DNA of 64,000 bases, from assembly GCA_018818125.1 (NCBI GenBank), contig JAHISQ010000001.1, forward strand, positions 1 to 64,000. The letters are read 5' to 3'. Below are positions 53,201-56,200 of the stretch, piece after piece; position 1 is the first letter of the stretch, and each line of letters opens with the position of its first letter. The position numbers are program-made. The DNA comes from Candidatus Rifleibacteriota bacterium. GTDB taxonomy: Bacteria > Muiribacteriota > Ozemobacteria > Ozemobacterales > Ozemobacteraceae.

Positions 53201-56200
53201 GAGAATGGTTGCCATGGGAAGATAAAGGATATTTAAAGGCAATTTATGAATATGGGGAAAAAATTGGAGTTGGCTTAGGTGCGCCCGACTTGATGATACG
53301 CAAAAAAGGCCAGCTAAACCATGCTCTGGCAATGATGCATGAGCACAACTACAGTGTGCCACTGGGAATAGCGGTACAGGATGGCAATTATCTGGGGCTA
53401 ACAGACTCCAATCTCATAAAAAAAGATCGAGAAAACATAGTTCCGATGTTGCATGCCTTTGCCAAGGAATTTCTGAAAGTTCAATACATTTTCTGGGTAA
53501 ACCAGGAGCCATACTTTGAAGAAGATGTTTTACCCTGTTTTATCTCACACGATAAGTAGCGAATTTTCTAAAATTGGTTTGTGTCGTCTGTGATACTATT
53601 TTGTAAATAGCATTTTGCCCTTGAGGAAACCTGATGAATGTGGCTGACAATCCCGAGTTGTGTGGGCTGATTGCCGTTGTTTTTGTCGTAGTGTTTATCT
53701 GGGCAAACCGCTGCTCAAAATGCGGAAAGCTTTTCACTACAAAGATCAGAAGTCGCACCAAAACCTCAGAAGGATACAGTCATTCCTGGGAAGTTGATGA
53801 TAAGACGCAGCGGGCAAAAAGTGTTCGCAGCTACCGCTACAACTATAACGAAACCTACGCTTGCAGCAAATGTGGCCATGAATACAGCACTTCGACGTCG
53901 AGTCCGCGGGATCTTTCCTGCGGTTACTTTCTTTCCGAAGAATCTGGCAAGGCTAAGGCGAGGGGATGCTTTAACCCGCTGACCTGGTGGAGCTGGATTC
54001 CCGGTAAAAAGTTCTTGCTGACGCTGGTTTTCTTGTTTTTTGTCGGCCTGGTTGTTTTTGACTACGAGGTTTTATGGTATCCAACCCATCTAGAGACCTA
54101 TCTGGACAACTATATTGAATATCTCGAAGATCCTTTTTCGCCCAGGGAAAACTGGCGGACCCAGCTTGAGGTTAAAGAAGGGCACTGGCAGACCCGCCGC
54201 TATATCCAGGAATATCAGGAAGTAGAGAGAGAAAACTGGGAAGAATACGTGCCAGAATCTGCAAAGATTATGGAAAAATCCACAAAAGACCGGCCAATGG
54301 AGGCGAATCCATACAGCATTAACAGTCTTGGCGGCCCAAAACCAGGCATCTGGGTTAAATATTTGACTGATCAATGGGTAACGATTGAGACTTTGACGGC
54401 CTCCGGTACTGGATTGCCGATTGTCTACCCCGGAGAAATCGTTACTGCGCCCGGTGAAAGCCAATATGGCGCGCGCAAGTCTGATTATACTTCTGTAAGT
54501 TTTTCTCTAACTTTTAGAGAGACTTCAAATGGCAGTTTAATCTCAACCGACAGTGTCGGCTACATCAGCATTCGTGATCTTGATAATACTTACCCGCGCG
54601 AAATAAGCGAGAACATATACAAGTTTTTTATGCAGAATACCGGTCTGTTGAAAGCCAGAATTAAACAATATAGTTTCAATTCAACCCCCAAAGTATATAT
54701 CTACGTCGAAGAACCACTTTACTGAGTAGTTGTAATTCTTTGTTGATCGATGTTTGTCAGTGTAAAAAAAATATTTAAAAATAAATGTTGACATCAAATC
54801 CGTTTCGCGATAAACTAGGAAAGTTGAACGAACAGATCTTTGAAAATTGAAAAATAGAATCGGTGGCCGCAAGGCTGATGCTTCTGAGCTCCGGCAGGTT
54901 TCAGGCAGTTATCTCAAGATGGGTGCTGATGTCTGGTGACAGGCAAAACAACCCTGAAGGGAACAAATAACCTCGGGTAACGTGAAACTTAAGAAGAAGT
55001 ATGAGTTGGAAGGCAAAAATTCCATGGGGGGAGGACTCCGCATCGACGGAGAAACCAACTACAGCAGCAGAAAAACTCTAAGAGGGCCTCAAACCCTGTA
55101 AGAGGAAGGATTTATCCAGGGCTGTTGTAGCCAGATACCCCGAAGGACAAAAGGTCATGAGAGTTGTAATCGCGATGCCGGGGTGAAACTTGGCAGCGTA
55201 GGAGACGCTCTGAACCGGGAGTAAAGCTTCAAGGTTTGACTGAATCTCAAGATGGGAACCAGCTGCTTGCAGCAGGGGGCCAGTTAGAGCCAGGGTCGGG
55301 TAGAACGTAAGTTCAGCGGCCAGGTAGTGGGAACTGCCAGTGATTTCTGGAAGAAAACCATGTAGAGACAGTAACAGCGTAGGAGCATGATAGCTGGAAA
55401 CAGTTATCGATCGGATCAGTGTAAGACTCTGTAGATCAAGACCCTGCAAGTGCCAGTGGGGTGGAACAAACCCACAAGCTACCAAGGACGAAGTTCTGCT
55501 GAGAGGTTGAGAAAACCTGAGAGCGGAATGCGATAGGGCCGGAATCCTATCTGTCACGTCCTAGTTGTGAAGGCGCTAAGAGGGAAGAAACCTAGGAAGG
55601 CGTTGGCTTTATCCAGCCAATGAAGGTGTGTGTTGAACCTTGAAGTCGGCAGAAGCCCAGAAGAGGATAGAAAGACTCGGTTAACTCCAGTCCGGTGATT
55701 GTATCGACGGCCTCGAAGGCGATGAACGTCTGAGGCTTGGCGTAACCAAATATGCGTCATAGTGCAATTGCGTTAAAACTCTAGAAGGTATGTAACGACA
55801 TGAAGGGGTGATCAGAAGCGGTGACGCGACTGATTAATCACTCACTGACAGGTCTTCAAGAAGGAAAACCGATTCTAATTTGTTCGTTCAATAAAAAACC
55901 CCCGGTTAAACGGGGGTTTTTTCTATTTCCGCGTATTCGAAGTCAAAAGCAGTTTTGCTGTATTATTCGAGCCCAAGCACGGAAATCTTCAGTCCTCAAG
56001 GTCGACCGAAACGTAGTCACCCTCCTGGAGATCACGATTTTTGAATTTTTCGCATGGCACATATATTTCCATCATTGCTTCAGGATCTTCCGGGTGCCTG
56101 ATCACGACAACGACGATGCCAGCAGTGATACGATCTACAACCCCTCTTACCCGCCTTTTCTTTTTTGTTTCGCGGCCTCTCATGGTGTTTCCTCCCTGTC

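Follow-up and report, generated by a model that had tools for sequence, protein, structure and literature searches.

Positions 54788-55922 of the window, the whole 64,000-nt stretch of DNA analysed from a bacterium of the Ozemobacteraceae (Candidatus Rifleibacteriota), almost certainly encode a genuine, structured non-coding RNA about 1,050 nt long that belongs to an undescribed class. The initial annotation had read this locus as a giant, folded and transcribed chromosomal RNA outside every known family, and this part of the reading stood, while its confinement to a single family and to a single copy per genome did not. Few giant ornate RNAs are known from bacteria, and cryo-EM of the solved examples revealed unexpected assemblies made of RNA only, as described in part of PMC12286853. 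The present RNA is longer than the cryo-EM-solved ones and is chromosomal in nearly a whole family and in three more, rather than phage-borne. Its rRNA-type signals and, in some lineages, its rRNA-operon-like amplification point to a real cellular job. Over 60 natural variants, spread across four subfamilies that diverged deeply, open the structure to immediate study and make the role of giant bacterial RNAs a more testable question.

The transcription unit and its rRNA-like layout

The unit occupies a gene-free gap of 1,263 nt (54726-55988), flanked on the 5' side by a gene for a 363-aa protein with no Pfam family and on the 3' side by a minus-strand ORF of 64 aa, beyond which lie ACT-domain and DUF711 genes. 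Most of the nearest named relatives of the DUF711 gene carry the label Riflebacteria or Ozemobacteraceae. All parts of the unit lie on the plus strand. A UP-like A/T-rich tract and a sigma-70 promoter span 54762-54816, with TTGACA at 54788-54793 and TAAACT at 54811-54816, 17 nt apart; this was the top of five promoter-like sites in the scan (10/12). The site is weak by itself because shuffled sequences yield 2.7 such sites; it is kept at an equal position in the 25 homologs listed, which cover all 15 genera. The RNA probably begins near 54822. There follow the 5' strand of an outer closing helix (54823-54835, partner 55880-55891), a boxA-like word (54835-54846) located in the internal loop that separates both closing helices, and an RNA body of 1,023 nt (54855-55877), whose inner stem pairs 54855-54864 with 55868-55877. 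A hairpin and U-run at 55893-55922 form a likely intrinsic terminator, unlisted by the terminator scanner, that recurs at the equivalent place in most homologs. Relative to its flanks, the unit is skewed to G and A. Thus, the gap, promoter, boxA-like leader and terminator reported initially were all found again, the promoter being conserved across genera.

The absence of a long sense ORF, also claimed initially, holds: no ORF of at least 50 aa lies wholly within the unit on the plus strand, where a 130-aa GTG frame begins at 55821 and extends beyond the terminator. The minus strand carries frames of 159 and 68 aa, of which the former is open in just 3 of 39 homologs, and most indels among homologs (634 of 725) are not multiples of three. 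A protein-coding reading was rejected, given the rarely open 159-aa frame and the mostly frame-shifting indels. The paired columns contain 1,568 G-U against 352 A-C cells, and this excess assigns the RNA to the plus strand.

A parallel to this layout is found in the four rrn operons of the family genome G011, which have a like promoter type and an identical boxA word immediately ahead of the processing stems of 16S and 23S. Both the unit and these operons thus present a UP-rich promoter, then the boxA word, then a long 5'-3' stem. The E. coli boxA consensus is given as GYTCTTTAANA, and the chief role of the Nus factors is described as rRNA folding, in the consulted part of PMC5725501. In G000, the genome that holds the unit, the 9-base boxA word has 156 matches, a count from which the rRNA operons are absent because they are unassembled there, and only the match in the unit has such a promoter in front of it. 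The RNase P gene of G000 has no such promoter or boxA leader. The gene nusB is present in four of the five genomes examined, G000 among them, and the boxA word is degenerate in the remote families f3 and f10. By analogy with the rrn operons, the RNA is likely to be transcribed in the manner of ribosomal RNA.

Contigs assembled from four RNA runs of three studies cover 54847-55899, including one of 1,014 nt that corresponds to 54847-55852 with zero differences. Depth in the RNA runs is 0 over 53000-54811 and 56171-57500, and the sole piece outside the unit has 191 nt and a depth of 2.9; the RNA contigs are thus limited to the unit, with near-empty flanks. The runs were selected for holding the RNA and their contigs carry no strand, ends or level, while the 17 of 20 RNA holders that contain half or less of the words were not counted as evidence. 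From the contrast between unit and flanks in runs selected in this way, a high abundance of the RNA is a fair inference.

Predicted fold and covariation

The unit of the window folds with a z-score of -4.3 (20 shuffles). For the comparative analysis, 50 family loci were reduced to 34 sequences of 64% mean identity, leaving out the truncated L012, L028 and L043, three more that were truncated or carried large indels (L030, L033 and L047), and near-duplicates. RNAalifold predicted 342 pairs in 50 helices from these 34 sequences. Covariation was assessed with an in-house R-scape-like script, which uses an APC-corrected G statistic and is distinct from R-scape, against a null in which the tree-inferred changes were re-placed and the column rates kept. 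This tree-based test bears out the covarying fold with a 5'-3' closing stem that had been proposed for the locus: 51 of the 342 pairs, distributed over 27 of the 50 helices, are significant, as opposed to 0 in each of six controls whose partners were slid by 1-3 columns. Furthermore, 24 of the 29 best-scoring column pairs of the whole alignment are predicted pairs. When 11 metagenome copies were included (55 sequences reduced to 39; 40 null alignments), 49 of 336 pairs were significant.

The predicted fold consists of the 5'-3' closing stem and five arms arranged round one junction and connected by A-rich linkers. Predicted arm I (54866-55014, helices H3-H10) is shorter in families f11, f3 and f10, and is followed by predicted arm II (55021-55147, H11-H16) and by predicted arm III (55153-55437, H17-H28), which bears an invariant GUGAAA-type loop. 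Predicted arm IV (55442-55584, model R1) is the most conserved and displays two invariant A-rich loops, which we take to be T-loop-like; 97% of its cells are paired, compared with 88% in shuffled and 38-46% in slid controls, and 22 of its 37 pairs have changes on both sides. Predicted arm V (55591-55864, H37-H49, model R3) ends in hairpin H49, which varies freely.

The closing and arm-base helices differ in how they are supported. The outer closing helix H1 has 79% standard pairs and none of its 13 pairs is significant, although it is clearer in other genera and in f11, and the inner stem H2 has 94% standard pairs, of which 3 of 10 are significant. No significant pair occurs in the arm-base helices H3, H17, H29 and H37. 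Because most arm bases are nearly invariant, the predicted five-arm hub is supported chiefly by complementarity that is conserved, and less by significant covariation.

A recurring module marks the arm bases: a helix of 3-4 bp that ends in CC/GG-type pairs, a loop rich in purines (3x3 for arms III and IV, similar for the rest) and a longer helix. It was found at nine places examined and recurs inside arms II, III and V. The profiles of the arm sequences do not outscore reversed controls on the remaining arms, and the arms could not be shown to be internal duplicates. In two of the 19 loci, the arm IV structure model scores weakly on arm II (E 4e-5 and 5e-4), and the arm V model weakly matches an upstream sub-arm in f10; since only structure models cross-match, and weakly, no more than a shared base module is claimed for the arms.

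Conservation extends to unpaired positions. In total, 207 of 1,125 columns are conserved at 97% or more, and adenine occupies 59 of the 84 unpaired positions that reach at least 95% conservation. GNRA-type tetraloops occur at 54935-54940, 55396-55401 and 55820-55825. Loop-loop pairing among 39 sequences yielded three candidates, all on the boxA word and none covarying, at limited power and with many of the loops invariant.

Range, copy number and genomic context

A blastn search detects the RNA in 48 of the 51 Ozemobacteraceae genomes, in all 15 genera, and in none of the 36 other genomes of the phylum, exactly the counts first reported. The restriction to one family that had been drawn from them was overturned by covariance models and follow-up blastn, which add 14 of the 36 genomes and three more families. 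The arm IV model, trained on the family, matches 6 of 6 genomes of genus g39 in family f11 at 55-63 bits and one genome of f3 (G053) at 38 bits. Both are complete units: the one of f11 has a promoter, a boxA-like word, a closing stem, five predicted arms and a terminator within 1,170 nt (z -4.3), and the one of f3 measures about 1,000 nt (z -3.4). An independent arm V model matches the f11 and f3 copies at the expected place, at 28-42 bits, such that the two family-only models fall in the same order in both. The arm V model also uncovers family f10, through G072 at 46 bits (fold z -5.1), and matches 10 of 10 f10 copies at 26-57 bits. Searches by blastn from the remote copies add G068-G071, as well as G078 and G079, each of which shows two copies as 5' ends cut by contig ends.

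Altogether, the RNA is present in 62 of 87 genomes of the phylum, in four families (48 of 51 in the Ozemobacteraceae, and 1 of 1, 5 of 10 and 8 of 9), and gave no match in the 16 genomes of the seven remaining families. Outside the phylum, filtered searches gave 0 of 151 genomes with model R2 in the phylum of G090, 0 of 151 in that of G088, and 0 of 151 with the arm V model R3. These blanks, like those in the 22 match-less genomes of the phylum, are weak because the filtered search missed G082, a known positive, and because multi-copy genes drop out of assemblies. Some candidates were discarded: the one R2 match among 151 genomes in the phylum of G087 lies within a protein gene, G071:C17 lies within a 705-aa gene, and G068:C1 and G073:C95 were unconfirmed. 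In a further search, one of five genomes matched, and that genome was already part of the family set. The tree of the RNA groups six of seven multi-member genera; as judged from this sequence-based grouping and from the model matches in remote families, the RNA is probably ancient and vertically inherited.

The number of copies varies more than the one per genome initially reported. Most family genomes have a single copy, and 5 of 46 have 2-4 matches. At least four copies are present in G053. In f10, G071 has 14 dispersed matches, at least six of them full or near-full copies and eight of them pieces, and G072 has 17, consisting of three full copies, one of 850 nt and 13 pieces. Nine paralogs from these two genomes are 71-92% alike and each retains promoter and terminator; 95% of their cells are paired, and 93 of 324 pairs show changes on both sides, against 9-16 in slid controls. 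Unrelated ordinary genes surround the f10 paralogs, and the sequence that they share extends from about -55 to the terminator. Since the promoter, which is untranscribed, was copied along, the duplication took place at the DNA level, and such copying with a kept structure suggests selection for more RNA. Dispersed multi-copy cassettes, like rRNA operons, break assemblies.

A non-autonomous, selfish DNA element with an RNA that promotes the spread of the element might produce the same dispersal. The 14 and 17 matches amid unrelated flanks, the copies in G053, the two clusters of their own that the G071 paralogs form in the tree and the varying neighbours all fit such an element. However, copying through an RNA route would have lost the promoter, the f10 copies share no flanks, and inspection of 13 of them by eye revealed no terminal repeats or target duplication of the kind expected of an insertion sequence or MITE. 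Of the 31 proteins flanking the f10 copies, one is a transposase (DDE) piece, at a distance of 1.35 kb. In most of the family the RNA is single-copy and its xerD-linked position is kept across genera. Searches of 50,697 phage records with four queries returned no match, and those of 72,556 plasmid records with two queries returned just a 31-base terminator match. This evidence makes a selfish element an unlikely explanation.

The xerD linkage involves a protein of about 1,000-1,300 aa with a weak SprA-like match, encoded upstream of the RNA in 8 of 21 family loci and usually preceded by xerD; the same neighbourhood occurs in 12 of the 17 metagenome loci with at least 1.3 kb downstream. In the window, xerD and the SprA-like gene are located at 42130-46067, 8.7 kb from the RNA, and the f11 and f10 loci examined also lack the pair next to the RNA, for which reason the association reads as synteny. 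The SprA-like protein has no relative in viral contigs. No protein gene is constantly adjacent to the RNA, its downstream neighbours varying across 21 loci, and a tRNA is near 1 of the 44 loci scanned (0 of 20, 1 of 8 and 0 of 16).

Relation to known RNAs and possible roles

The lack of an Rfam family was confirmed for the window and extended to the remote subfamilies. Within the unit, 15 matches were returned at E≤10, 14 of them on the terminator region and none at gathering score, and 4,227 Rfam models gave no score on members of the four subfamilies. The RNA is nowhere described in the literature searched, where candidate lists in supplements could hold a fragment. With about 1,050 nt it exceeds, as first stated, GOLLD (700-833 nt), ROOL (550-659 nt) and OLE (577 nt), at the lengths given in parts of PMC12286853 and PMC12990946.

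GOLLD (RF02032) is similar in being giant, ornate and protein-free-looking, with A-rich loops and many helices, and its function is likewise unassigned. However, the model of its 3' domain has no match at E≤10 in the unit or in G000, and none in remote members; conservation in GOLLD is found in one 3' domain, whereas here it extends across arms II-V. As excerpted from PMC12286853, GOLLD and ROOL are phage- or tRNA-linked (in the case of GOLLD, to prophages), opposite to the chromosomal RNA described here with its single nearby tRNA and no match in phage records, and they form cages via kissing loops and A-minor contacts, some of these kissing loops being detected by covariation, as opposed to the absence of covarying loop-loop pairs, at limited power, among the 39 sequences. 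ROOL (RF03087) is also a large stable RNA with its own promoter, but it has about 550-660 nt and several pseudoknots in place of a 1,023-nt body with none detected, and RF03087 matches neither the unit nor remote members; the search across G000 had no positive control. In the part of PMC5643018 consulted, ROOL reaches the abundance of 16S and its deletion is described as lacking a clear phenotype; it is strain-variable and dispensable in L. salivarius, whereas this RNA is nearly fixed in its family.

Comparison with the rRNA operon adds to the shared order of signals the dispersal of multi-copy cassettes; the stem sequences differ, and the paralogs of this RNA diverge to 71-92%. Derivation from rRNA was rejected, as no profile or model match to the 16S and 23S of G011 and G037 rose above noise, and the same applies to the RNase P of the family.

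The best reading, by analogy, is that the RNA works like GOLLD or ROOL while belonging to neither, and that its product is likely a compact, mostly protein-independent structural particle. In its full form, that of an rRNA-style stable RNA, folded co-transcriptionally, clamped by its end stem and packed by adenines into an ordered particle needed in quantity, the chances for and against seem evenly balanced. A strong sigma-70 promoter would fire, Nus factors would load on boxA and aid folding during synthesis, and the closing stem would guard or define the ends of the RNA. The arms may then pack into an ordered particle, either monomeric or oligomeric, by way of conserved unpaired adenines, GNRA loops and the repeated module (A-rich linker, helix of 3-4 bp, purine-rich loop near 3x3 in size and a further helix); this particle might serve the cell as storage, scaffold or container. 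Under this proposal the cell needs the RNA in quantity, and some lineages would for that reason carry the entire cassette in several copies, as with rRNA operons. Among the points against the structural particle, no kissing loops were detected, whereas the GOLLD and ROOL cages rest on them, and a protein partner encoded elsewhere would escape these comparisons. According to a partly consulted preprint, short RNAs are also able to form cages (10.64898/2026.07.01.735769).

A bolder version, offered tentatively, is that of an ancient, phylum-wide fourth stable RNA, a five-arm kilobase machine made and multiplied in rRNA style that would assemble itself without protein into an ordered particle and perform an essential, possibly catalytic job; if true, no class of bacterial RNA other than ribosomal and intron RNAs would be larger.

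A role like that of OLE, presumably Rfam RF01071, is a doubtful though serious alternative, in which the RNA would be the core of an RNP, with the purine-loop modules as protein docking sites, and would function in the stress adaptation of anaerobe-rich lineages. Both RNAs are chromosomal, vertically kept, highly structured and found in environmental bacteria, and the near-fixation of the present one, its many repeats of one module and the recurrent xerD and SprA-like neighbour would suit this role. OLE has a constant adjacent partner gene, oapA; the neighbours of this RNA vary downstream, and the SprA-like gene is not beside it in the window or in the f11 and f10 loci examined. Moreover, OLE has 577-600 nt and occurs in another phylum, whereas this RNA is multi-copy in some lineages, and the OLE model matches neither the unit nor remote members. 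The alternative overlaps with the structural particle, since OLE itself folds, and dimerises, without protein, as stated in parts of PMC12286853 and PMC12990946.

An improbable alternative is an unknown ribozyme, for instance the descendant of a domesticated self-splicing intron with several domains on one wheel. Group II introns have several domains that radiate from a central wheel, and the likeness in layout, a size similar to that of such an intron without its ORF, and the columns conserved at 97% or more would agree with it. On the other hand, group I and II models have no match at E≤10 in the unit and none at E≤1 in further members, with no domain V/VI or I, although the same scan detects a true group II intron adjoining the RNA at L225, where the 5' end of the intron follows the terminator of a remote homolog. 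A group II intron has a host gene and a reverse transcriptase, whereas this RNA has its own promoter and terminator, interrupts nothing, contains no conserved ORF and has no reverse transcriptase nearby; the free variation of its final hairpin, H49, is unlike what a catalytic domain V would show. The doubt raised initially, that a remote class or a degenerate intron might be concealed here, found no match in the Rfam and group I/II scans.

It is very improbable that the RNA belongs, as a remote member invisible to present models, to a family already described, be it GOLLD, ROOL or a housekeeping RNA of which it would be a giant variant. Its subfamilies hardly recognise each other and G082 was missed by the filtered search, from which it follows that deep homology can hide, but the 4,227 Rfam models gave no score across four subfamilies, the predicted topology has none of the GOLLD and ROOL pseudoknots, the RNA is unlike the 16S, 23S and RNase P of the family, and G000 has a normal RNase P, tmRNA and 6S RNA at other loci.

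Sequence variants and RNA-run contigs

The RNA unit in the window (54788-55922, + strand) carries an 8-nt insertion, a local repeat, at 54847-54854, on the 3' side of its boxA-like word (54835-54846), and this insertion is absent from the other homologs listed. A different variant occurs at locus L033 of a relative with a small 2.8-Mb genome (G012), where the copy lacks about 130 nt at the point where the predicted arms III (55153-55437) and IV (55442-55584) meet; this copy is a natural deletion variant of the RNA.

Contigs assembled from public RNA runs were compared with the window locus. 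In run X3, a single contig (window 55376-55644, depth 111) differs from the window at 15 letters, 14 of which are C>T on the + strand, and the contigs adjoining it contain no such differences. The pattern looks like cytosine deamination, by damage, one-molecule amplification or editing, and not like strain divergence. Run X4 contains five contig joints within the RNA (window 55034-55852), each omitting 159-386 nt, which possibly reflect reverse-transcriptase jumps over structure, or other homologs.

BoxA-like words and NusB in relatives

In the f3 family genome G053, which is 90% complete, NusB gave no match; the boxA-like word of its RNA copies (L218 and L089) is degenerate. Another genome of the phylum, G082, has two NusB-domain matches. 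The 23S rRNA gene at L058:1290-1520 (G037) has its own promoter and boxA-like word, and is apparently not linked to 16S.

Neighboring genes and a group II intron

Group IIC introns are placed right after terminators. A similar placement was found in G072, a genome of family f10, where the 5' part of a group II intron (L225:3994-4350, - strand) starts directly past the terminator of the RNA. About 1.2 kb upstream there is a second, incomplete copy of the RNA.

A 64-aa ORF with no Pfam family (window 55989-56183, - strand) is convergent with the terminator of the RNA (55893-55922) and is covered by a 191-nt RNA contig from run X2. Farther away, at 42130-46067, xerD is followed by a gene for a protein of about 1,000 aa that belongs to no Pfam family and matches SprA, the type IX secretion translocon, weakly; this pair is kept throughout the family, frequently immediately 5' of the RNA. 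In family f11 (L087:2767-7857), the RNA and an S1-domain (rpsA-like) gene are divergently transcribed, and tRNA-Sec lies 1.2 kb downstream. Elsewhere in the window, at 20507-20948, four tRNA genes, three for tRNA-Ser and one for tRNA-Arg, are clustered on the - strand.
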